A DNA stretch of 64,000 nt from contig CAYQYW010000005.1 in assembly GCA_964421995.1 (NCBI GenBank), positions 2,203 through 66,202 on the forward strand, written 5' to 3'. The first letter of the stretch is position 1, and the number at the start of each line of letters is the position of its first letter. Below are positions 23,788 to 63,529 of this stretch, piece by piece. The DNA comes from an uncultured Candidatus Saccharibacteria bacterium. GTDB taxonomy: Bacteria > Patescibacteriota > Minisyncoccia > Phycocordibacterales > CAYQYW01. Position numbers and translations under genes: made by a program. The notes beneath the pieces are model-generated. The model did not search any database, was not told the DNA's origin, and saw nothing but the letters and a program-made list of their open reading frames with translations.

Positions 23788-23868
23788 AGAATACTTATTA
23801 TCGGAAGACCCTAAGGCCTTGATATATAAAGTAGCTGGGTCTATATAGACAATTTTTCTATAACTATT

Positions 23869-24216
23869 TTATTTCTTAACCTTATACAACATTCCAAACT
23901 TCTCCAGCTCATCAATCGCAGGTTTTAAGTGAAGCCCTCTTTTTGTAAGTTTGTATTCCACTTTTGGAGGAACAACAGGATATACTTTTCGCTCTATCAG
24001 TCCATCACTCTCAAGTTCTCGAAGAGACTGAATAAGCATTTTATCGGTCACTTTTGAAACTTCATTAATCCCTTTTTTTATCTCTCCATATCGAGCAACT
24101 TTTGCGTCATAGAGAAGCATCCAAACAATAATTCCTTTCCATTTCCCCATAAGCACACTCAAGGTGAGCTGTAGTGGACACACATATTCTTTTTTATTTA
24201 TTCCGTACAGAGTCAT
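23869..24216 (-). CDS. HxlR-family winged-helix transcriptional regulator
   Basis: CPLQLTLSVLMGKWKGIIVWML...RYGEIKKGINEVSKVTDKMLIQSLRELESDGLIERKVYPVVPPKVEYKLT is the HxlR (DUF24) signature. Confidence 0.75.
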   Translation of the reverse strand: MTLYGINKKEYVCPLQLTLSVLMGKWKGIIVWMLLYDAKVARYGEIKKGINEVSKVTDKMLIQSLRELESDGLIERKVYPVVPPKVEYKLTKRGLHLKPAIDELEKFGMLYKVKK

Positions 24217-24317
24217 ACTGTCATTATAGTGAGTAGTATACTTTTTTGTGTATATTGCACAATAGATAGGAAATATTTATACTTAGTTATATTAATTACT
24301 CATTAACTAAATGTATT

Positions 24318-24710
24318 ATGCAAAAAACAATCACCGCCTTTGAGATTCCTTCAATAGATTTCGATCGTGCAGTCAAATTTTATAGTGCTGTCTTAGGAGG
24401 AGAGGTTAACATCGTAGACTTTGTAGGTCACGAAGGTCTTAAAAAAGGTATCTTACCCCATGCAGAGGGCGGAATAGCAGGAGCTATTGTTTGCGTACCA
24501 GAATATACAAAGCCAAGCGATCAAGGAGTTAATGTCTATTTATATGTATCTGATCTTGATACTGCACTACAAGAAACTGAAAAGATGGGTGGAAAAATCG
24601 TGGTTCCAAAAACAGATGCTGGAGAGACGGCTACGGGTGAAAAAGCTGGTGAATTTGCATGGATTATAGATAGTGAGGGTAATCGAGTAGCGTTAAATCA
24701 ACCTGAATAA
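24318..24710 (+). CDS. VOC-family (glyoxalase/bleomycin-resistance-fold) protein
   Basis: 130 aa, divergent from the HxlR regulator (a typical pairing). beta-alpha-beta-beta-beta pattern with GGKIVVPKTDAGE...WIIDSEGNRVAL. Confidence 0.6.
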   Translation: MQKTITAFEIPSIDFDRAVKFYSAVLGGEVNIVDFVGHEGLKKGILPHAEGGIAGAIVCVPEYTKPSDQGVNVYLYVSDLDTALQETEKMGGKIVVPKTDAGETATGEKAGEFAWIIDSEGNRVALNQPE

Positions 24711-24738
24711 ATAAGTAGATGTGTATAAGAAATTTTTA

Positions 24739-24879
24739 TGGCAGGATTGAGTTCTGAAAATAAACTGCGAGATATTTACAATATACGTATTGTAAAAATC
24801 TTTGCAAAAAGAATTAAAAAGACATACCCCGCTTTCAATGAGCGTGGTTTTGTTATGGCTATTCAGGCAACATTATAAT
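24739..24879 (+). pseudogene. Possible remnant of an AlkC/AlkD-like gene N-terminus
   Basis: 47-codon ORF ...IVKIFAKRIKKTYPAFNERGF... resembles VVLKKAYPTLDQKKF of the 21981 gene. Followed by out-of-frame further similarity. Sits in a 300-bp otherwise noncoding gap. Confidence 0.2.
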
Positions 24880-25021
24880 CACTTAGTTTTGGTGATCGTT
24901 CAAAGGTTGCTATCGGTGAACCACATAAGTGTGATGAACTACGGTAGGTAAAAATAGATGAGCTGCCAGAACCAATGTACTCACAGTTTCCATTGTTTTT
25001 GGAGCGGTATAGAGAGAAGTT

Positions 25022-25888
25022 TTAAACAAACCTCTCAACCAAAGCATCAATCTCACCAGTCTGATCAACGTAAAACCAGTTAATTAATGGATCTCTCTTG
25101 AACCACGTCTTCTGTCTTTTCGAGAATTGAACGATCTTTGTTTCCAATTCTTCTATCATTTCTTCTTTAGTTATCTTTCCTTGTAGGAATCTAGAAACAT
25201 AGCGGTACTCAAGTCCTAATTGTTCCAGTCTTTCTAGTGATAGGTGGAGACCTTCAACTTCCTCGATCATTCCGTCGTCTATTCTTTTTAGTAGGCGATC
25301 GTGGATTTTTGCTCGTAGGTCATCTGTTTTAATTCCAATTTGAAGTACGTTGTACTTTTTATTTATTGTAAGACTAGGAACCTTACCAAGCGTCTCAACG
25401 ATTTCAAGCGCCCGTATTAATCGTGGCTTGTTATCTCTATCTACAGTCTCTGCTCTATCAGGGTCTTTTTCTTCCAATTCTTCTAACAGTTCATTGATTG
25501 ATTTTTTTTCAAGTTTTTTTCGTAATTTTTTATTTGGCGGAACTTCAGGAATAGACATGTTGTGTATGAGTGCATCTACATAGAAACCAGTACCTCCTGC
25601 GATGATGGGTATATTTCCTCTTTTAGTAATTTCTTCTATTTTTTGCTCTGCAAGTTCCTTGAAGTTGGCTACCGTAAATACATTTTTGGGGTCCTCCACA
25701 TCCAGGAGGTGATGCGGAATACCTCCCATTTCCTTTTTGGTGATTTTTCCGCTTCCAATATCAAGTCCTCGATAGACTTGCCGGGAGTCTGCTGAAATCA
25801 CCTCTCCGTTGAATTTTTTTGCAATATGCACTGCTAGATCACTTTTGCCAGAAGAAGTAGGTCCAATAATTGTAATTATTTTACGCAT
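25022..25888 (-). CDS. miaA: tRNA dimethylallyltransferase
   Basis: 288 aa. N-terminal P-loop IIGPTSSGKSDLA, ADSRQVYRGLDIGSGK. Confidence 0.9.
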   Translation of the reverse strand: MRKIITIIGPTSSGKSDLAVHIAKKFNGEVISADSRQVYRGLDIGSGKITKKEMGGIPHHLLDVEDPKNVFTVANFKELAEQKIEEITKRGNIPIIAGGTGFYVDALIHNMSIPEVPPNKKLRKKLEKKSINELLEELEEKDPDRAETVDRDNKPRLIRALEIVETLGKVPSLTINKKYNVLQIGIKTDDLRAKIHDRLLKRIDDGMIEEVEGLHLSLERLEQLGLEYRYVSRFLQGKITKEEMIEELETKIVQFSKRQKTWFKRDPLINWFYVDQTGEIDALVERFV

Positions 25889-25920
25889 AGTGATACTATA
25901 TACAGGATTAGTAAATAAAC
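25856..25920. repeat. 65-bp perfect direct repeat, copy 1 (miaA first 11 codons plus 32 bp upstream)
   Basis: AGTAGGTCCAATAATTGTAATTATTTTACGCATAGTGATACTATATACAGGATTAGTAAATAAAC, identical to 26728-26792. Confidence 0.9.
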
Positions 25921-25940
25921 AATATTTTACTTCCTCCAGA

Positions 25941-26636
25941 ATGAAGATTTATGATATGGATTTACAAGAATTTAAAACTCAATTTATAAAAAATGAACTG
26001 GAGATTACCAATAAATATGGAAAAATATTTTCTTTTATTGATTTTTCAAATGTAAATAATTGGTTTGAAAATGATACACAAGATTGGAATAATAAGCTTA
26101 TAGAAAAAAATGAAAAAATTGGAATTGATATTGCTAAATTAAAAAGATTTTCAGATATTTTTAGTCATAGAGTTAGGACCTACTATGGAGAAGATCCAAA
26201 AAATCCTAAATCTCTTGGTTTTACTCATGTTACAAGAAAGATTTTTAATAGAAGAAACGTTGTCACTAAAGATTTACAAAAAATTAAGCATTATATAGAG
26301 ATTGACAATAAAAAGGAGGAAAAATTTATTACTACAGATAGTGATGGCAATAATTACATAGAAATTCGTAAGTGTAATTTTGACGTTGAGATTTCAGTTG
26401 ACGCAATTAAAATGCTCAATCACTATGATACTTTTTGTATTTTTTCTGGAGATGCAGACTTTGTATACTTGAATAATTTTTTAAAGAAAAAAGGTAAAAA
26501 AGTGATTATTATAAAAGGAGGTTATATAATGACAAAATTAAGAAAATCTGCAAATTTAGTAATTAATGCTCAAAATATTAAAAAACATATAGCAAAAATA
26601 GAAAAAAGACCTGACAAGTCAGGTCTTTTCGGATAG
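25941..26636 (+). CDS. NYN-domain (LabA-like, PIN-like nuclease fold) protein
   Basis: FIDFSNVNNW near the N-terminus and FCIFSGDADFVYLNNFLKKKGKKVIII near the C-terminus are NYN/LabA hallmarks. Extremely AT-rich. Start set at MKIYDM (25941), so the gene no longer overlaps miaA. Confidence 0.6.
   Translation: MKIYDMDLQEFKTQFIKNELEITNKYGKIFSFIDFSNVNNWFENDTQDWNNKLIEKNEKIGIDIAKLKRFSDIFSHRVRTYYGEDPKNPKSLGFTHVTRKIFNRRNVVTKDLQKIKHYIEIDNKKEEKFITTDSDGNNYIEIRKCNFDVEISVDAIKMLNHYDTFCIFSGDADFVYLNNFLKKKGKKVIIIKGGYIMTKLRKSANLVINAQNIKKHIAKIEKRPDKSGLFG
26608..26629 (+). terminator. Rho-independent terminator overlapping the end of the NYN gene
   Basis: GACCTGAC-AA-GTCAGGTC hairpin followed by TTTT. Confidence 0.5.
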
Positions 26637-26727
26637 TTCTCCCGAATTAACCTCGGGCAGGTATGTGCATAATATATCATGTTTAACTTAGAGAATCAAT
26701 TGTATTCAACAACTTATTACCCTGTGT

Positions 26728-26792
26728 AGTAGGTCCAATAATTGTAATTATTTTACGCATAGTGATACTATATACAGGATTAGTAAATAAAC
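26728..26792. repeat. 65-bp perfect direct repeat, copy 2 (a non-functional duplicate of the miaA start and upstream region, now directly upstream of the peroxiredoxin gene)
   Basis: Identical to 25856-25920. Confidence 0.9.
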
Positions 26793-26804
26793 GATAAAAA
26801 TAAT

Positions 26805-27425
26805 ATGGACGATTATGAAGAAGATTTAATGATGTACCCGCTTCGTGTTGGAGAGATAGTTCCAGACATGGAGTTTGAGGTGTATCACAAGAATGATAGT
26901 AAAAAAATGAGATTCTCAGACTTTGATGGAAAGTGGCTGATTGTCTTTTTCTATCCTGCAGACTTTACCTTTATTTGTCCAACTGAATTAGGAGAAATGG
27001 CAGCTATGTACAAGGATTTTATTAAGGAAGGCGCTGAGGTACTGTCAGTGAGTACTGATACGGTGTACACCCATAAAGCATGGCATGACACTTCAAACAC
27101 AATTAAAAAGATTGAGTTTCCAATGATGGCTGATCCAAGTGGAAAAATTTCACGATTGTTTGGAACATACGTAGAAGAATTTGGAGAAGAACTTGTCGAT
27201 GATGAAGGATTGTCACTTCGAGGGAGTTTTATAATAAGTCCAGAAGGAGTAGTACAATCACTTGAAATTAATGCCAATAATATTGGGAGGAGTGCAAAGG
27301 AATTGTTAAGAAGGCTTCAGGCTGCTAAGTTTGCTGCAGAACATGATGGTCAAGTTTGTCCAGCGGAGTGGCAACCGGGAGATGATACGTTAGAGCCTGG
27401 AATGGATCTCGTAGGAAAGATTTAG
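26805..27425 (+). CDS. Typical 2-Cys peroxiredoxin (AhpC/TSA family)
   Basis: Peroxidatic Cys motif DFTFICPTE and resolving Cys GQVCPAEW. Confidence 0.9.
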   Translation: MDDYEEDLMMYPLRVGEIVPDMEFEVYHKNDSKKMRFSDFDGKWLIVFFYPADFTFICPTELGEMAAMYKDFIKEGAEVLSVSTDTVYTHKAWHDTSNTIKKIEFPMMADPSGKISRLFGTYVEEFGEELVDDEGLSLRGSFIISPEGVVQSLEINANNIGRSAKELLRRLQAAKFAAEHDGQVCPAEWQPGDDTLEPGMDLVGKI

Positions 27426-38790: not shown

Positions 38791-39568
38791 TATGAAGAGA
38801 GGGCTTCGATCTAGAGCACTCGTGCAAAAAAAACGTAAGATTCTATTACAGAAATTTACGGCTCTTTCTTTTATTATTGTTTTTATTTTGAGCTCGTACT
38901 CCGTTTTGTCTCAACTTAAGAGTATCACCATTTCAACAATTGAGGTGCAGGGGAATAACGTAGTATCAGTTCAGGAGCTCACCACAATTGCAGAGAATGA
39001 GTTAGCGGGAAATTATTGGTATTTATTTTCTAAATCAAACATAGCACTGTATTCAGAAAAGAACATCACTGCTTCTGTGTATGATTTGTACAAGAGGATA
39101 AAAAAGATTGATGTGGGAAGGAGAAACCTACAGACTATCTATATGAGAGTTGAGGAGCGGGAGCCATACGCACTATGGTGTACGGATGTTTGTTACTTCT
39201 TAGATGATCGAGGGTACATTTTTGCAGAAGCTCCTGAGTTTACCAGCATGGTGTACTTTACGTATGAAATTCCGCTATCGTCTGACCCCATTGGAACACA
39301 ATTATTTACAGAAAAAGAATTTAGTGAAATAGAGTTGTTATTAAAATCACTTAGAGATTTAGGATTAGTTCCGATAAAGATTTCATTAATTGACGAAATT
39401 GATTTTGAGGTTCAGTTGAAAGATGAAAGCGCCATTATGTTTAGTAGGAATCAAGATTTTGCTGAGGTGTTTGATAATCTTGAATCGGTATACAATGAAA
39501 TTGATGGACTACTAGAATATATTGATTTTAGGTTTGGTAGCAAAGTATATTACCGATATGTGGAATAA
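38780..39568 (+). CDS. ftsQ: Cell division protein FtsQ/DivIB-like (TM plus POTRA)
   Basis: Basic N-terminus, one TM helix, POTRA-like IEVQGNNVVSVQEL region. Start may be the downstream MKRGL. Confidence 0.55.
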   Translation: MVDSMKRGLRSRALVQKKRKILLQKFTALSFIIVFILSSYSVLSQLKSITISTIEVQGNNVVSVQELTTIAENELAGNYWYLFSKSNIALYSEKNITASVYDLYKRIKKIDVGRRNLQTIYMRVEEREPYALWCTDVCYFLDDRGYIFAEAPEFTSMVYFTYEIPLSSDPIGTQLFTEKEFSEIELLLKSLRDLGLVPIKISLIDEIDFEVQLKDESAIMFSRNQDFAEVFDNLESVYNEIDGLLEYIDFRFGSKVYYRYVE

Positions 39569-39610
39569 TTTAAAAAAGCCGTTTTTTGTGATGGCGCCGA
39601 TGGCAGATGT
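39522..39610. repeat. Source copy of an 89-bp segment (ftsQ 3' end / dus 5' end) duplicated in inverted orientation at 42767-42855
   Basis: Appears to be a perfect reverse-complement match to 42767-42855. Confidence 0.8.
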
Positions 39611-42567: not shown

Positions 42568-42585
42568 TGTTTCAATACGTCTATT

Positions 42586-42656
42586 ACCGGATCGTCTAAT
42601 GGTAGGACGCTTGGTTTTGGTCCAAGAAATCGGGGTTCGAGCCCCTGTCCGGTAGC
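42586..42656 (+). tRNA. tRNA-Gln (anticodon TTG)
   Basis: TACCGGATCGTCTAATGGTAGGACGCTTGGTTTTGGTCCAAGAAATCGGGGTTCGAGCCCCTGTCCGGTAG. U1-A72 pair as in bacterial tRNA-Gln. Loop TTTTGGT. Confidence 0.75.
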
Positions 42657-42766
42657 CGTTTGAATATTTGAACCGATTTGCAAGCTCCGCATACGGAGTA
42701 TTGGCTTTCTTCCCTCTACGACACAGTTCGAGGTAATAATTTTCAGCAATCTGCGCTTTCCAAGCA

Positions 42767-42855
42767 CATCTGCCATCGGCGCCATCACAAAAAACGGCTT
42801 TTTTAAATTATTCCACATATCGGTAATATACTTTGCTACCAAACCTAAAATCAAC
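42767..42855. repeat. Inverted perfect 89-bp copy of the ftsQ/dus junction (39522-39610), lying in noncoding DNA downstream of tRNA-Gln
   Basis: Reverse complement reads TTGATTTTAGGTTTGGTAGCAAAGTATATTACCGATATGTGGAATAATTTAAAAAAGCCGTTTTTTGTGATGGCGCCGATGGCAGATGT. Confidence 0.8.
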
Positions 42856-43050
42856 ACATTCCATTGGTCCAAATGTTCAGCCAACAAATCATTACTATGC
42901 AGAAAGCGTCGAATAATTTGTTTAGTGAATATCCTCACGCAGATTTGTGGTGATTCTTTTATCAAATTACACTGTCGTGTTTAAGATTTGTTTCTGATAT
43001 ACACTTAACTATCTCAAATGCTTCAAAAGTTGAGACACTAAGTCTCCAAA

Positions 43051-43083
43051 AGAAGTTCGAGGTGCGTCCCGTTGCGGGTAGCA
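43051..43083 (+). repeat. Degenerate copy of the tRNA-Gln 3' end (att-like scar A)
   Basis: AAGAAGTTCGAGGTGCGTCCCGTTGCGGGTAGC versus tRNA 3' end GGTTCGAGCCCCTGTCCGGTAGC. A shorter GTTCGAGGT fragment also occurs at 42727-42735. Confidence 0.45.
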
Positions 43084-43184: not shown

Positions 43185-43685
43185 ATGCTGTATTTTATGA
43201 AGTCCAATTATGCATTTATTGATGCACAAAATCTTTATCTCGGTTCGAAGCAAGCTAACATTAATCTCAGTTATCGGAAGTTTCGTGTTTACTTAAAGGA
43301 AAAATATAATGTAGAGCGTGCATATATTTTTATTGGATACTTGCCAGAAAATCGAGAGCTGTATGATTATCTGCAAGACAGAGATTATCTCTTAAAATTT
43401 AAGCCAGTACTTCCAGCTGGAAACGGTCAAAAACAAAAAGGTGATGTTGATGCTGACATGGCATTTAATACAATGCGCTATTATCAGGAGTATGGTAAAG
43501 CAATTTTGGTAACGAGTGACGGAGACTTTGATACGTTGGCGAGTTTTCTACGAACAAAAGACAAATTGGGTGGTGTGATCAGTCCTAATAGAGATAAGTG
43601 TTCTTCTCTTCTGCAAAAAGCAGCAAAAGGTAAAATGTTTTATCTTGAGGATGTTGGAAAGAAAATAATGAAAAAGCACCGCTAG
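43185..43685 (+). CDS. NYN-domain (LabA-like) protein, second copy
   Basis: AFIDAQNLY near the N-terminus. KGDVDADMAF and LVTSDGDFDTLASFL are NYN acidic-residue motifs. Confidence 0.6.
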   Translation: MLYFMKSNYAFIDAQNLYLGSKQANINLSYRKFRVYLKEKYNVERAYIFIGYLPENRELYDYLQDRDYLLKFKPVLPAGNGQKQKGDVDADMAFNTMRYYQEYGKAILVTSDGDFDTLASFLRTKDKLGGVISPNRDKCSSLLQKAAKGKMFYLEDVGKKIMKKHR

Positions 43686-43803: not shown

Positions 43804-43834
43804 AAAAGTTCGAGGTACGCCCCTGTCCGGTAGC
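43804..43834 (+). repeat. Degenerate copy of the tRNA-Gln 3' end (att-like scar B)
   Basis: AAAAGTTCGAGGTACGCCCCTGTCCGGTAGC, that is the tRNA-Gln 3' end with a 5-nt insertion. Ends 6 nt before the next start codon. Confidence 0.5.
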
Positions 43835-43840
43835 AATTAT

Positions 43841-44977
43841 ATGATCAATATGATAAAACAGAAATTTCTTGATTATCATCGTTCGCATGGATTTAAAATT
43901 TATGACTCATTTCCACTGGTGATTGATGACCCTACTGTTCTTTTTACTAATGCGACCATAACACCTTTTAAGTCTATGTTTACAGGAGAAGTAAAAATGG
44001 AAAACTATGCTCTCTCACAAAAATGTTTACGTTTGGGTGGTACGGCAGGAAATCTTGAGACGTCTCGATCTGATATAAATTATACATCTTTGTTTGATAT
44101 GCTTGGCAGTGGTTTTTTTAATGTGAGCATGAATGAAGCAGTACATTATTTTGTAGAGCTACTCTCAGAAATAGGTTTTTCACAGGATCGTCTCATATTT
44201 TCAACCCTATCGGGCGTCGGTTTTGATGAAGCACTTAAATGTGCAGGCGTTGCTTCTCATCAAATATTTTTATTTGATCCCTCTGATAAGACTTTTCTTC
44301 ATGAATGGAGTTTTGGAGAAGGAGATTTACACGGACACGGTATAGTAGTTCGAGTTATTCCTGAGGAAGAGGTAACTCTTTCTAAAGACAACATAGTCGA
44401 TAAGTTTTCAGAGTATATTCAAATTGGAAGAATAGTTCATATTAATGGTATATCACATGAAAATAAAACTGTTGAAGAATTTCCATATATGGCTTTTGAT
44501 GTGGGACTTGGTTTAAGTAGAGTTGAATGTGCCCTTTTAGGAAATTCTGAATCATCAATGCGCCCATGGAGAGAAATTTCATATAATCTTCAAGGTGTGA
44601 TTCCTGGATTATCTAAAGGTGATGCTCATTATATTGCAAATTTATATTATGTAGCTAAAAGTCTTATAAGCGAGAAACTAGTACCTGGGAAAAAGAAACA
44701 TTCCTATGTTCTGCGGAAAATTATACGATTATTTATTGAAGAACTTTGGGTTAAGTCAAAAAAACTTGTAGATATTGTTGAACTTATTAGTCAACCACAG
44801 AGGTTATCAGATAATGAACTATTTTTTGAAATTATTTCACAAGAAGAAAAGGCACTTCGTAAGATACTTTCTAAAGCATTGAAAAAAAGACAGGAATACT
44901 CTACTATGAGCCCTGAAGAGTTATGGTCTACTTTTGGCATTAAAGGTAATCTCCTTAATCTTTTGAAACAAGATTAA
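43841..44977 (+). CDS. Mini-AlaRS paralog: alanyl-tRNA synthetase catalytic plus tRNA-recognition domains only (no editing or C-Ala domains)
   Basis: Collinear with E. coli AlaRS residues about 1-440. [36 protein letters not shown] matches [51 protein letters not shown] matches [28 protein letters not shown] matches [24 protein letters not shown] matches RGYVLRRIIR. The conserved FFEMLGNFSFGDYF block is degenerate ([11 protein letters not shown]). Confidence 0.6.
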   Translation: [378 protein letters not shown]

Positions 44978-48283: not shown

Positions 48284-50155
48284 ATGGAATACAGTGAGGC
48301 TAGAAAGCGATATCTTAAATTTTTTCAGAAACGAAAACATGCGATTGTTCCATCTGCATCACTTGTACCAATAAATGACCCAACCACTTTATTTACTGGG
48401 TCTGGAATGCAGCCAATGGTACCGTTCCTCTTAGGTGAAGCACATCCTAAAGGATCTAGGATTGTTGATTTACAAAAATGCTTTCGTGCAGAGGATATTG
48501 AAGAAATAGGAGATAATCGTCACACAACATTTTTTGAAATGATGGGGAACTGGTCTTTTGGTGATTATTTTAGAAAAGAACAACTTTCTTGGTATTTTGA
48601 ATTTCTCACAGACGAGATGGATATAGATCCAAAGAAACTTTATGTAACGGTATTTGCAGGAGATAAAGATTTTGATTTAAAAAGAGATGACGAAGCTATT
48701 AGTATTTGGAAGAAACTTTTTGCTGGAAAAGGTATAGAGGCAAAAGATATATACGTAGGAAGCGAAGAGCATGGTGCTAATTTAGATATAGGCGATGCTC
48801 GTATTTTTCAATATACCGCAAAGAAAAACTGGTGGTCTCGAGCCGGGATACCAAAAAATATGCCAGTCGGAGAAATGGGAGGTCCAAATTCTGAAGTATT
48901 TTTTGATTTTGGTACTCCACACGACACCGCTTACGGAAAATATTGTCATCCAAATTGTGACTGCGGAAGGTTTGTAGAGCTTGGAAACTCTGTTTTCATA
49001 ACTCACCTAAAAACAGATGACGGAAATTTTGTATTATTACCAAAAAAGAACGTAGATTTTGGTGGGGGAATAGAACGTCTTGTTGCTATTGCGAATAAGA
49101 ATCCTGATATATTTTCAATCAATATCTTCCAGGGGGTGATTGCAAAGCTTGAAGAACTTTCTGGAAAATCTTACGATCAAGATAAACATGCATTCCGGAT
49201 TATCGTTGATCATATTCGGGGAGCTCTCTTTATGATTGTTGATGGAGTTGTTCCTTCAAACACTGAACAAGGCTATTTCTTACGAAGGCTTCTACGACGA
49301 ATGATAGTACATGCTGATCGACTTACTATTCCTAAATATGGTCTTATAGAACTTCCTGAAATTATTGCTGTTGAGTATAAAGATGTCTACCCAGAATTAG
49401 TTGAGAAGATTTCATATGTACAGAAAATTTTTAGAGAAGAGGAAGAACGTTTCCGTGTCACTCTCACAAAAGGTCTTAAAGAATTTAAAAAGCTTTCTCA
49501 TAACACAAGTTTTATCTCTGGACACGATGCATTTATTCTTTTTTCTACATACGGATTTCCGTTAGAAATTACTATAGAATTTGCTGAAGAATGTGGAATT
49601 ACTGTTGACGAAGAGGCATTCCATGAAGAAATGAAAAAGCATCAAGAGGAATCACGAAAAGGGGTAGGGCAGAAATTTAAAGGAGGTCTTGCAGACAACA
49701 ATGAAAAGATAACTATGCTCCATACCACAACACACCTTATGCTAGCAGGACTTAGAAAATACTTGGGCAAAGATGTACACCAGGCAGGATCGAACATAAC
49801 TGTTGAACGTACTCGTTTTGATTTCACTCATTCTGAAAAAGTTAGTAGAGAAATTCTAAATAAGGTAGAAGAATATGTTAATAGGGCAATTCAAAATAAA
49901 TGTAATGTCATCACTGAACAAATACCAAAAGAAAAAGCAAAGGAACAGGGCGTCGAAGGAAGTTTTTGGGAGAAATATCCTGATACGGTGAATGTGTACA
50001 GCGTTGTTTGTTCAGACGGAACTGTCTATTCAAAAGAATTATGTGGCGGACCACATGTTAAAAACACAAAAGAAATCAAGGGCACCTTTAAAATCAAAAA
50101 AGAAGAGGCTAGTTCTGCAGGGGTAAGAAGAATAAAAGCTATTTTAGAAGAGTGA
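48284..50155 (+). CDS. alaS: Alanyl-tRNA synthetase (catalytic, tRNA-recognition and editing domains; no C-Ala domain)
   Basis: 623 aa. TTLFTGSGMQPMVPF, RHTTFFEMMGNWSFGDYF, GGGIERL. Editing-site HTTTHLM (HxxxH) and CGGPHV (CxxxH). Confidence 0.9.
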   Translation: MEYSEARKRYLKFFQKRKHAIVPSASLVPINDPTTLFTGSGMQPMVPFLLGEAHPKGSRIVDLQKCFRAEDIEEIGDNRHTTFFEMMGNWSFGDYFRKEQLSWYFEFLTDEMDIDPKKLYVTVFAGDKDFDLKRDDEAISIWKKLFAGKGIEAKDIYVGSEEHGANLDIGDARIFQYTAKKNWWSRAGIPKNMPVGEMGGPNSEVFFDFGTPHDTAYGKYCHPNCDCGRFVELGNSVFITHLKTDDGNFVLLPKKNVDFGGGIERLVAIANKNPDIFSINIFQGVIAKLEELSGKSYDQDKHAFRIIVDHIRGALFMIVDGVVPSNTEQGYFLRRLLRRMIVHADRLTIPKYGLIELPEIIAVEYKDVYPELVEKISYVQKIFREEEERFRVTLTKGLKEFKKLSHNTSFISGHDAFILFSTYGFPLEITIEFAEECGITVDEEAFHEEMKKHQEESRKGVGQKFKGGLADNNEKITMLHTTTHLMLAGLRKYLGKDVHQAGSNITVERTRFDFTHSEKVSREILNKVEEYVNRAIQNKCNVITEQIPKEKAKEQGVEGSFWEKYPDTVNVYSVVCSDGTVYSKELCGGPHVKNTKEIKGTFKIKKEEASSAGVRRIKAILEE

Positions 50156-61495: not shown

Positions 61496-63529
61496 ATGAA
61501 TATACGTAAAGGAAAATTTATAATCGCATTGTTTCTACTTCTATCGATGTTTGTTGCGTCCGATGCTGATGCAAGACGATCTATATTTGGTAATGGCGGT
61601 GAACCGATTTTTGCGGGAACTAGTATCACCAATCCAGAAACGACTTGCCCAGCTGGATATGATTTTTTTGAAACAGTTGATAACCCGTATTCGTTGGAGA
61701 GTTCTGGTACGGGTCCACTGTATGTTGGTTCTGGAGTTTTAATGATCTGTGTGAAAAGTGATCTGTGTGATCAATATGGTAATGGGTGGCCTCACATTGG
61801 TATAGACACCGAAGTAGATGCTCGAGTTGCGCCGTGCGGTATTGTTACTAGTACAACCGCGACACTTGTTGCAAATTCTTCGGCGATTAATGTTGGAAAT
61901 GCTTCAACACTTACCTGGGGTAGTTCTGGAGCAACAAGCTGCGCTGGTTCTGGTTTTCTAACAGGAGGAGCGTTGTCTGGAAGCGTTAGTGTTTTGCCAA
62001 ACATTACCACTACGTATTCAGTGACTTGTACTGGCTCATCGGGGTCTGCGATTGCAACTGCTCAGGTTTCGGTTTCAGCATCTCTAGATTTAGTTGCAGG
62101 AAGACCAACTTTGAAAACAGGTAATTTAAATGGAGCGGGTAAACAAGTATCGTTTGAATCAGTTATTTCTAATATGGGGGACGCACGTGCCCTAGGTGAA
62201 ATACTAAATGTATTTGAGTTAGATATTAATAATGACGGAAGCTTTGATGTGCTCCTTACTTCGGATTCTCTTTCTGATCTTGATGGCAAAAATAGCAAAA
62301 AAATATCATCAACAAATTGGACGACCGTTCTTGGCACACATTCCATTCGAGCTGTTGTGGATGTTGGTTCTGCAACAAGAAGAACTGAAGGTGAGTTGAG
62401 GACATATGCATGTCCGGCCACAACTGCGCTTTGTGGTCCATTCTGCATTCCTGAGCTTAATGATGGAGGAGGACCTAGCATAGTATGTAGTGTTCCAACG
62501 ATGATGTTGGTAGCAGACGATAGTTCAATTACTGTTGGTGAATCAACAGATATTTCTATACAGGATCCAAAGAATGAACAGTTGTGTACTGCGGTGCAAA
62601 GGGAATTAAATCCTCTTCTGTCTGGTCAGGGATCAGTAACCGTTTCTCCAATGGTTACTACAACGTATCGATTAGACTGCGAAGATGGATATGGTGGAGT
62701 ATATTCTCCGACAGTTAAGGTTGTTGTTTCTGGTCAAACTACCAGTACCTGGGAGTATTTTGATACCGACTATACAGATTTTTGGTGCCCTATAACTGAT
62801 ATAAACAACGCATATCAAAGTCTGTCGGTATGTCCAGATGATCCAGAAGGAAAGATTTGCTCTGAGCCGAGCCTATGCAAAATTAATAGCATTAATAATA
62901 GTTGTGTAATTAAGACAATACTGTATGTCTGCGACGCGGATGGTAGTACTGGTGGTTCAGGGAGTACCGGAACTACTAATCCCGGAAGTATTGTTGAAGT
63001 AAATGAATTAAATAATACAAGTTCAACATATGTATTTACAGTGGGTGAACCTCAATGTTCTGATGGTATTGATAATGATGGTGACGGAGATATTGATTAT
63101 CCAAATGATGTTTCGTGTTCAGGGGCGAGCGATTTAACTGAAGGTCTACCAACACAGTGTTCTGATGGTATTGATAACGATAGTGATGGAGATATAGATC
63201 TTGCTGATGCTGGATGTAGTTCTGCTGGAGATAATAGTGAAGCTCAATCAGCTATCTTAAATCCAACGGTAGATATTGCAACCGTACCACCTGTTGCACT
63301 GGTTAGAAAAAGAGCTCAAATAACTGTTGTTTGGACAGCACGTGATGTTAGTTCATGTGTGGTAACTGGCCCATCGGTTGCCGAATCATACAGCACGACA
63401 AGAGTTAGTGGTCAGCAACGAGTGGCGATTAATGAAAAAAGCACGTACACCATTACCTGCAATTCAGACACGGGAGTAATTAGTGACAGTGTTACTGTTG
63501 GTATTGCCCCATCATTTAAAGAGGAATAA
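61496..63529 (+). CDS. Large secreted Cys-rich surface protein with Ig-like beta repeats and two TSP3-like calcium-binding repeats
   Basis: Signal peptide (MNIRKGKFIIALFLLLSMFVASDADA). Gly/Ser/Thr-rich beta repeats with TLTWGSSGATSCAGSG and TTTYSVTCTG. Two copies of QCSDGIDNDGDGDID...D...C near the C-terminus. Start set at MNIRK (61496). Confidence 0.45.
   Translation: MNIRKGKFIIALFLLLSMFVASDADARRSIFGNGGEPIFAGTSITNPETTCPAGYDFFETVDNPYSLESSGTGPLYVGSGVLMICVKSDLCDQYGNGWPHIGIDTEVDARVAPCGIVTSTTATLVANSSAINVGNASTLTWGSSGATSCAGSGFLTGGALSGSVSVLPNITTTYSVTCTGSSGSAIATAQVSVSASLDLVAGRPTLKTGNLNGAGKQVSFESVISNMGDARALGEILNVFELDINNDGSFDVLLTSDSLSDLDGKNSKKISSTNWTTVLGTHSIRAVVDVGSATRRTEGELRTYACPATTALCGPFCIPELNDGGGPSIVCSVPTMMLVADDSSITVGESTDISIQDPKNEQLCTAVQRELNPLLSGQGSVTVSPMVTTTYRLDCEDGYGGVYSPTVKVVVSGQTTSTWEYFDTDYTDFWCPITDINNAYQSLSVCPDDPEGKICSEPSLCKINSINNSCVIKTILYVCDADGSTGGSGSTGTTNPGSIVEVNELNNTSSTYVFTVGEPQCSDGIDNDGDGDIDYPNDVSCSGASDLTEGLPTQCSDGIDNDSDGDIDLADAGCSSAGDNSEAQSAILNPTVDIATVPPVALVRKRAQITVVWTARDVSSCVVTGPSVAESYSTTRVSGQQRVAINEKSTYTITCNSDTGVISDSVTVGIAPSFKEE

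Follow-up and report, generated by a model that had tools for sequence, protein, structure and literature searches.

An 803-bp AT-rich unit carrying an NYN-domain gene and a predicted small RNA gene, inserted between miaA and prx of a Candidatus Saccharibacteria bacterium

The DNA analysed here, referred to as the window, is a 64,000-nt stretch (positions 2,203 to 66,202) of contig CAYQYW010000005.1 from an uncultured Candidatus Saccharibacteria bacterium (GenBank:GCA_964421995.1). Between its genes for a tRNA isopentenyltransferase (miaA) and a peroxiredoxin (prx), an AT-rich segment at window positions 25925-26727, hereafter the cassette, was shown to be a horizontally acquired unit that had been inserted into the short divergent control region of the two genes, with duplication of 69 bp of the target. 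The cassette was also shown to be a two-gene unit, composed of a gene for an NYN-domain protein and a convergent gene for a predicted small RNA. Literature searches found no description of such an NYN and small RNA module or of its insertion signature.

Insertion into the miaA-prx control region

The features of the insertion site are as follows.

25022-25888, minus strand: miaA, intact (Pfam IPPT, 222 bits, E 1e-65), collinear with the miaA of a relative, L081; its first 11 codons lie inside copy 1 of the repeat
25856-25924, no strand assigned: copy 1 of the target-site duplication, 69 nt; a single-copy segment at the L081 empty site
25925-26727, plus strand: inserted cassette, 803 bp, AT-rich; missing from L081 and without terminal inverted repeats
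26728-26796, no strand assigned: copy 2 of the target-site duplication; a dead copy of the miaA start together with the prx upstream region; junction confirmed in L076
26805-27425, plus strand: prx (Pfam AhpC-TSA, 123 bits, E 1e-35), adjacent to and divergent from miaA in L081

An earlier note, made from the letters alone, had claimed that two identical 65-bp repeats at 25856-25920 and 26728-26792 each contain 11 codons of miaA plus 32 bp upstream, and that the second copy forms the upstream region of prx. The two copies proved to be exact over 65 nt, consisting of 33 nt of miaA, in agreement with the 5′ end of its open reading frame (ORF) at 25888, and 32 nt upstream. Allowing one mismatch (A at 25921, G at 26793), the repeat reaches 69 nt (to 25924 and 26796), with 36 nt upstream of miaA, and this pair is the longest direct repeat of the whole window. 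Copy 2 ends 8 nt (69-nt form) or 12 nt (65-nt form) before the prx start codon at 26805, which bears out its position as the prx upstream region.

Comparison with L081, whose nucleotide identity to the window is about 76%, whose miaA is 82% identical to that of the window at the amino acid level and whose gene order, relA-parB-prx-miaA, is like that of the window, revealed a clean empty site. In L081, prx and miaA are divergent and separated by a 43-bp spacer, with no NYN gene. A single 69-nt segment (L081 4360-4428) aligned by blastn to both window copies, from which the left arm of the window runs on into miaA and the right arm into prx; at the variable position L081 has A, as does copy 1. 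Because L081 holds the segment once, with miaA and prx adjacent and no NYN gene, the window is read as carrying an 803-bp insertion with a 69-bp target duplication. The ancestral arrangement proposed in the earlier note, divergent miaA and prx with the cassette placed in their shared intergenic region, is thus found in a relative, and the proposed target duplication holds, with a length of 69 bp rather than 65. Owing to the duplication, the 5′ ends of miaA and prx are both intact, and a copy of the prx-proximal sequence immediately precedes the NYN gene.

L081 provided the one clean empty site in all. A metagenome scan with miaA yielded relatives of at most 53% identity, which served for synteny and not as empty sites; in two of these (L022 and L027, miaA 53% identical) tRNA-Leu(caa) adjoins miaA and neither prx nor NYN is present there, suggesting that the miaA-prx junction has been remodelled more than once. 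Exact look-ups of the window NYN and miaA proteins gave no record, and sibling contigs were reached via prx, the glyoxalase gene and near-identical homologues. In two of these contigs, L080 and L076, which stem from another sample and have 99.2-99.8% identity to the window, the miaA-repeat-NYN (left) and cassette-repeat-prx (right) junctions are present, including the A/G difference and with strain-level differences.

The metagenomic source, together with the fact that sibling contigs break in or near the region, would favour an assembly artefact, in the form of a collapsed or chimeric repeat, or else an old resident gene lying beside a local duplication. However, since both junctions recur in the assembly of a 99%-identical strain from another sample, an artefact is excluded as far as sequence data allow, and the structure is older than the strain split. 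The clean empty site, of a kind that the earlier note had proposed to look for, argues in the same direction, as do the repeats at other loci (see below), whose divergence (94-97% identity) would be impossible for an artefact, and the low G+C content (GC) of the NYN ORF, 13 points below its flanks, also speaks against this explanation. Taken together, it is extremely improbable.

Two further observations concern the same region. A contig from a third sample (L075, JGI sample 3300033048) is 99.8% identical to the window from 26786 on, but departs from it within copy 2, 7 nt short of that copy's right end; its first 22 nt (L075 1-22, GTGGAGTTTTAATCTTATGATT) were unmatched, which reflects an error at the contig end or else a third allele of the miaA-prx site. 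It was also noticed that, relative to L081, the window has about 1.2 kb extra between tRNA-Trp and the miaA 3′ end (23788-25021), encoding an HxlR-type regulator and a glyoxalase-fold gene, with no flanking repeat detected.

The NYN gene and the convergent small RNA gene

The cassette contains the following features.

25941-26636, plus strand: LabA-type NYN-domain gene, 231 aa from the first ATG (Pfam NYN, PF01936, 53.1 bits against a cutoff of 24.2)
26597-26664, minus strand: predicted small RNA gene of about 65 nt, ends predicted; 5′ hairpin with stems 26653-26657 and 26641-26645, terminator hairpin 26603-26630 followed by a T-run
26671-26699, minus strand: sigma-70-type promoter of the small RNA from a consensus scan (TTGATT, 17 nt, TATATT, with TG before the -10)
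26704-26712, plus strand: degenerate 9-mer TATTCAACA; at least 8 other loci have a perfect TTATCCACA here instead

The NYN gene is the only ORF between the repeat copies, and its likely start by family alignment is M6 (25956), giving 226 aa. The AT-richness described in the earlier note was evident, with the ORF at a GC of 0.25 and the flanks at 0.38; the value of about 22% given there for the gene is reached only in 200-nt windows (down to 0.22). Searches returned 582 homologues, the best 120 of which are 66-80% identical, about 221 aa long and from sources named Patescibacteria or Paceibacterota. Five acidic residues (D34, D148, D154, D171 and D173) were invariant in 20 sequences of the family, the family profile reached the LabA-like structure 2qip, and the acidic motif aligned to that of 2qip. 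An AlphaFold model of moderate confidence (pLDDT 69) had its best Foldseek matches in 2qip and the NYN domain of MARF1, with the Pfam alignment covering residues 113-206 only and model residues 43-60 being of low confidence. The protein is thus predicted to have a PIN-like fold with an intact putative nuclease active site. The LabA-like NYN model of PADLOC gave a weak match, and scans of NCBIfam and PHROG likewise gave only weak NYN-type matches. LabA/NYN.COG1432 proteins (PF01936) are functionally uncharacterised in bacteria (PMC5499597). The cassette protein has the domain, fold and conserved acidic residues in common with them, but its subfamily differs in having an insertion between the first strand and the remainder of the domain and in being tied to a dedicated small RNA.

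Downstream of the NYN gene and convergent with it, the small RNA was found at 26 of 26 distinct homologous loci. The consensus of this 3′ module, read opposite to the NYN strand, is a -35 of TTGAYW, a 17-nt spacer, a -10 of TATAMT and an RNA of the form ACCUGCCCGAGGUUAAUUCGGGAUAACUAUCCACAAAGACCUGAC..GUCAGGUCUUUGUUUUU, and both hexamers and their spacing are kept in an alignment of 22 loci. Across these 22 loci, 98% of the cells of the two RNA helices are paired, with compensatory changes in 7 of the 16 pairs, values that no shuffle and no slid register reached; G.U wobbles numbered 12 on the RNA strand vs 2 on the other strand. The window RNA folds with a minimum free energy of -24.7 kcal/mol (z -4.7). 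A covariance model built from 25 RNA copies and run over both strands of 535 kb matched only beside NYN-family genes and always in antisense orientation, with matches outside the training set in L058, L069, L076 and, at 57 bits, L055, where the 5′ hairpin stem is retained and the loop is different. Scanning the 3′ module against Rfam gave no family at gathering score, the best being the rimP leader (28 bits vs 47), and the typical small RNA sequence had no exact match in the viral collection, where only the divergent L055 copy was found. Over the 25 loci, which have unrelated targets, the RNA is 85% identical across columns, too little variation among such different surroundings for a programmable guide.

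These results modify two statements of the earlier note. The hairpin that it assigned to the NYN gene as a terminator is real (26603-26630) and lies over the last NYN codons, but was scored in the scan as a terminator for the minus strand alone; and the cassette, described there as holding a single gene, does carry the NYN gene, with the convergent small RNA gene in addition.

Just outside the RNA -35, a perfect TTATCCACA, which we take to be the DnaA-box consensus, occurs in L004, L009, L010, L013, L015 and L018, and in inverted orientation in L006 and L016; a related sequence, CTATCCACA, lies inside the small RNA. DnaA-box-like 9-mers showed no enrichment within the window. A dif/Xer-like reading of GGTATGTGCATAATATATCATGTTTAAC was dropped, as only its -10-like part is conserved across loci.

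Recurrence at other loci, function and mode of insertion

At every locus tested, the GC of the NYN gene was 2-17 points below that of its flanks, and the surroundings varied. The closest homologues (77-80% identity) were located between efp and a Fic gene, behind a UDG gene and behind an S1-domain gene. Other NYN and small RNA units are located between hsdM and hsdS of type I restriction-modification (R-M) operons (L003-L006 and L058-L067), with the NYN start codon 4 nt past the hsdM stop in L003, L004, L006 and L058-L067 and, in L005, a DUF3800 gene between hsdM and NYN; this placement is stable in one Yonathbacteria population. A 44%-identical NYN gene with its convergent small RNA, followed by two small ORFs, was present at 5-563 of L055 (IMG/VR UViG_3300050035_000470), a contig that, as read from its ORF sequences only, appears to be phage-derived (small and large terminase subunits and a ParB-methylase).

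The search for further NYN cassettes with flanking duplications, suggested by the earlier note, yielded three more loci. The repeat is 26 nt (96% identical) in L013, made up of the downstream gene's start codon plus 8 codons; 37 nt (97%) in L017, ending 9 nt before the downstream ATG; and 95 nt (94%) in L016, where it covers the 5′ end of a minus-strand gene, much as in the window. In each case the repeats consist of local sequence, and target and repeat sequence are different at every locus. The simple inserts are 774 bp (L013), 789 bp (L017) and 803 bp (window) long, and wherever the repeats are clear (four loci) the insert stops, on its right side, 26-32 nt beyond the RNA -35. The varied contexts, the low GC and the local duplications in L013, L016 and L017 support the earlier suggestion that NYN genes act as mobile cassettes, and the cassette is read as a mobile module, probably a selfish or defensive one.

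With one test for all, flanking repeats were detected in 4 of 20 NYN genes and in 9 of 200 other ORFs. Because the nine control ORFs include two Fic genes and a DUF3800 gene, in addition to the second NYN gene of the window, the repeat signature appears to mark small accessory or selfish genes generally and not NYN alone. The repeat-flanked accessory genes observed were the two Fic genes (L003 8858-9988 and L068 4861-6000; repeats of 72 nt and 30 nt), the DUF3800 gene (L005 4922-5755; 42 nt, a second copy of the 3′ end of hsdM) and an uncharacterised gene (L007 4957-5763; 24 nt, the 3′ end of tRNA-Thr). Two other sequences were followed near NYN genes: the motif GGACGACGTTCGAACCT in L068 and L070 was set aside as a host-specific intergenic repeat, and an RNA-like sequence upstream of NYN in L007 and L008 had no Rfam match and was not recognised as tmRNA by ARAGORN.

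As a whole, the data are best explained, with moderate confidence, by an acquired NYN and small RNA unit that would act as a toxin-antitoxin (TA)-like or abortive-infection system and would have entered by a transposition-like insertion. As to function, we infer from the predicted PIN-like nuclease with its intact active site, from its pairing with a dedicated convergent RNA and from the presence of the unit in R-M operons, beside Fic genes and in a phage that the pair may work like a TA or abortive-infection module. In it, the NYN protein would be an RNase-type effector restrained by the small RNA, which would either pair as an antisense RNA with the 3′ end of the NYN mRNA or bind to the NYN protein. 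Such a role would account for the unit being kept after transfer, for its presence in defence islands and in a phage, and for an RNA that outlasts the nuclease gene: the NYN ORF is disrupted by a stop in L010, by frameshifts in L016 and L019 and by five stops in L021, with the RNA still scoring 76-99 bits there, and an intact NYN gene without the RNA was seen at no locus examined. As to insertion, the two strands of the target would be cut 26-95 nt apart and the unit joined without homology, gap filling then yielding the repeats, with the enzyme acting in trans or being NYN itself. This staggered cut and gap repair, although favoured over its rivals, is the weakest inference made here, possible rather than probable.

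Several points weigh against this reading. Concerning function, a single frameshift, possibly an assembly error, accounts for the disruption in two of the four NYN ORFs concerned, and a nuclease of 221 aa is unlike the classical type I toxins, which are small peptides. Trans-pairing between the RNA and the NYN mRNA beyond the shared terminator was no better than in shuffled controls, so that the RNA could act by 3′ antisense pairing or by protein binding. The candidate prx promoter-like match inside the repeat is weak (8/12 by eye, and absent from the consensus scan). Concerning insertion, the cassette holds no transposase or integrase, NYN being its sole ORF; clear repeats occur at only 4 of about 20 loci; and at these four the left end varies, lying 3-35 nt before the NYN ATG. 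A 223-nt "repeat" around an 805-bp interval in L008 was dropped as a target duplication, being only 77% identical, absent from the orthologous L007 locus and perhaps made of unrelated sequences. Moreover, the 1,515-bp insert of L016 brings along a truncated serine-hydrolase gene, the 3′ end of which is completed by the repeat, and this passenger fragment looks more like random capture of a donor fragment than like a defined transposon.

A right end and a unit length that vary little favour a defined element, whereas the variable left end and the L016 passenger argue against one. Variation of this kind would suit an illegitimate capture of transformed or transduced DNA, in which template switching or slippage re-copied 26-95 nt of the chromosome and the survivors were those events that duplicated promoter-proximal sequence and left the neighbours expressed. 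It would also fit the finding that the repeats always lie over gene starts or upstream regions, the occurrence of the same signature at Fic and DUF3800 accessory genes, which would point to a host-general route, and the presence in the window of an inverted 106-nt copy of a dus 5′ end (see below). However, no microhomology was found at either window junction relative to the L081 empty site, which argues against template switching, and a right boundary and unit length that are consistent across independent inserts are unexpected for random fragments; capture is therefore considered quite unlikely. Repeats of variable length made from local sequence would equally result from Campbell-type integration of a circle bearing the cassette and a copy of the target, by homologous recombination or an integrase acting in trans. 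The repeat restores the miaA 5′ end, like elements that enter gene 5′ ends, as SXT does in prfC and as do the dusA-specific islands; the second NYN gene of the window, behind tRNA-Gln and between copies of the tRNA 3′ end, has a classical att signature; and a 65-bp perfect repeat would permit excision of a circle and its re-entry into sibling genomes. Against this stand the lack of an integrase in the cassette, with none evident among the 53 window ORFs as checked by eye only, and the fact that the targets are numerous and unrelated and that their repeats differ and have no common core, which one integrase specificity fails to explain; in addition, a first entry at a new site would need a circle already bearing the sequence of that site. 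Since different targets with different repeats argue against one site-specific integrase, site-specific att recombination is held to be less likely than transposition-like insertion, and Campbell-type integration in general to be unlikely, although it and capture, which correspond to the two routes offered in the earlier note (a circular intermediate and replication slippage), are both genuine rivals. It is further conceivable, but highly doubtful, that NYN and the RNA together make up a new type of autonomous mobile element, in which the PIN-like nuclease itself would nick the target in a staggered way, possibly at open promoter DNA, and the structured, conserved 3′ module would set one fixed end; if true, this would explain insertions that lack inverted repeats and have long, variable target duplications.

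Returning to transposition-like insertion, the earlier note had considered 65 bp far longer than any duplication generated by a transposase, a statement that does not hold, as insertions of IS1634 and IS1549 produce long, variable direct repeats of 8-514 bp, for which there is no mechanistic model (PMC2266710). Long repeats of variable length (here 26, 37, 69 and 95 bp) are common to both, but IS1634 and IS1549 have a large DDE transposase and terminal inverted repeats, whereas the cassette has neither and its left end is not fixed; local alignment of both ends of five inserts gave nothing above chance for terminal inverted repeats. IS1634/IS1549 are the only bacterial precedent that we found for such duplications, itself without a mechanism. 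Compared with classical insertion sequences or miniature inverted-repeat transposable elements, the cassette is without terminal inverted repeats, a transposase gene or a duplication of fixed length. Flanking direct repeats of att type are shared with integrase-mobilised islands and cis-mobilizable elements, for which a constant att core or target gene would be expected, whereas the targets and repeats of the cassette differ everywhere. The cassette is similar to phage morons and integron cassettes in being small and self-contained, in its deviant GC and its position between genes, in having hardly any 5′ leader and a structured 3′ end, and in that one member of its family lies on a putative phage contig, but it has no integron integrase, attI or attC consensus, and target duplications of tens of bp are, to our knowledge, not made by either morons or integron cassettes. 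Unlike bridge RNA and omega RNA elements, which have target-varying guide segments, the cassette RNA is without such variation (25 loci).

On the functional side, type I TA loci with a convergent antisense RNA overlapping at the 3′ end are known from Bacillus subtilis (txpA/RatA and bsrG/SR4). Convergent protein and RNA genes, a shared terminator region and a strong promoter of the RNA's own are found in txpA/RatA-type loci as in the cassette; such loci reside on prophages or islands, as the cassette likewise does, and in the cassette family the RNA is kept where the protein gene has decayed. The toxin of txpA/RatA-type loci is a small membrane peptide, whereas the cassette protein is a predicted 221-aa NYN nuclease, the predicted overlap is the terminator hairpin only, and there is no Rfam antitoxin match. 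Type III systems (ToxIN-like) have a tandem-repeat RNA upstream on the same strand, in contrast to the single-copy, downstream and convergent RNA of the cassette. A nuclease gene in an R-M operon, as is NYN in L003-L006 and L058-L067, has a parallel in the anticodon nuclease PrrC, which is embedded in the EcoprrI type I R-M locus; however, PrrC has a different fold, and the window copy of NYN lies outside any R-M locus. The module thus resembles both type I TA loci and R-M-embedded nuclease genes, and neither definition fits it fully.

Patescibacteria (candidate phyla radiation) have tiny genomes with few recognised mobile elements or defence systems. In this setting, the window and L081 give a clean pair of filled and empty sites for a unit of 0.8 kb with copies in many lineages of the phylum and in one putative phage, with an insertion signature of long, variable target duplications that involves neither a transposase nor terminal repeats. 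Bacterial LabA-type NYN proteins are hereby linked to a dedicated, previously undescribed small RNA, from which a testable TA or defence role follows. Judging by the Fic and DUF3800 genes that are likewise flanked by repeats in these genomes, streamlined genomes may have a general route of accessory-gene acquisition.

The second NYN gene and other observations in the window

43185-43685, plus strand: second NYN gene (Pfam NYN, 56.2 bits), of a different subfamily (25% identity over 83 aa to the first)

The subfamily of this second gene is widespread in Patescibacteria. It is located 0.5 kb after tRNA-Gln (42585-42657), inside a 1.2-kb stretch with imperfect copies of the tRNA 3′ end as its limits. 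This 3′ end (GTTCGAG..CCCCTGTCCGGTAGC) recurs in degenerate form at 43053-43081 and, with 16 nt exact, at 43806-43834, both copies carrying a 5-nt insertion after GTTCGAG, and three sibling-strain contigs have the same arrangement. The claim of the earlier note that this gene, too, is embedded in repeat-bounded DNA is therefore correct in that copies of the tRNA-Gln 3′ end bound it, but the repeats are short and imperfect. Judged from its sequence, the region looks like two small att-bounded modules in tandem, forming an island of att type, although it holds no integrase gene as far as could be seen by eye.

In the first of these modules, between tRNA-Gln and the second NYN gene, a 106-nt segment (42766-42871) was found to be an inverted copy, 95% identical, of 39505-39610, comprising the start of dus (tRNA-dihydrouridine synthase) and 17 nt upstream; it is another duplicated gene 5′ end beside an NYN gene. 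Directly after the second NYN module, 43841-44977 encodes a 378-aa paralogue of alanyl-tRNA synthetase with the catalytic core only, and 3.3 kb further a 623-aa alanyl-tRNA synthetase-like ORF, as judged by its N-terminal sequence, occupies 48284-50155. Finally, a 687-aa ORF was observed to contain, at 63053-63212, a pair of 58-nt copies with 81% identity, 102 nt apart, which encode an Asp/Gly-rich repeat (CSDGIDNDGDGDID).

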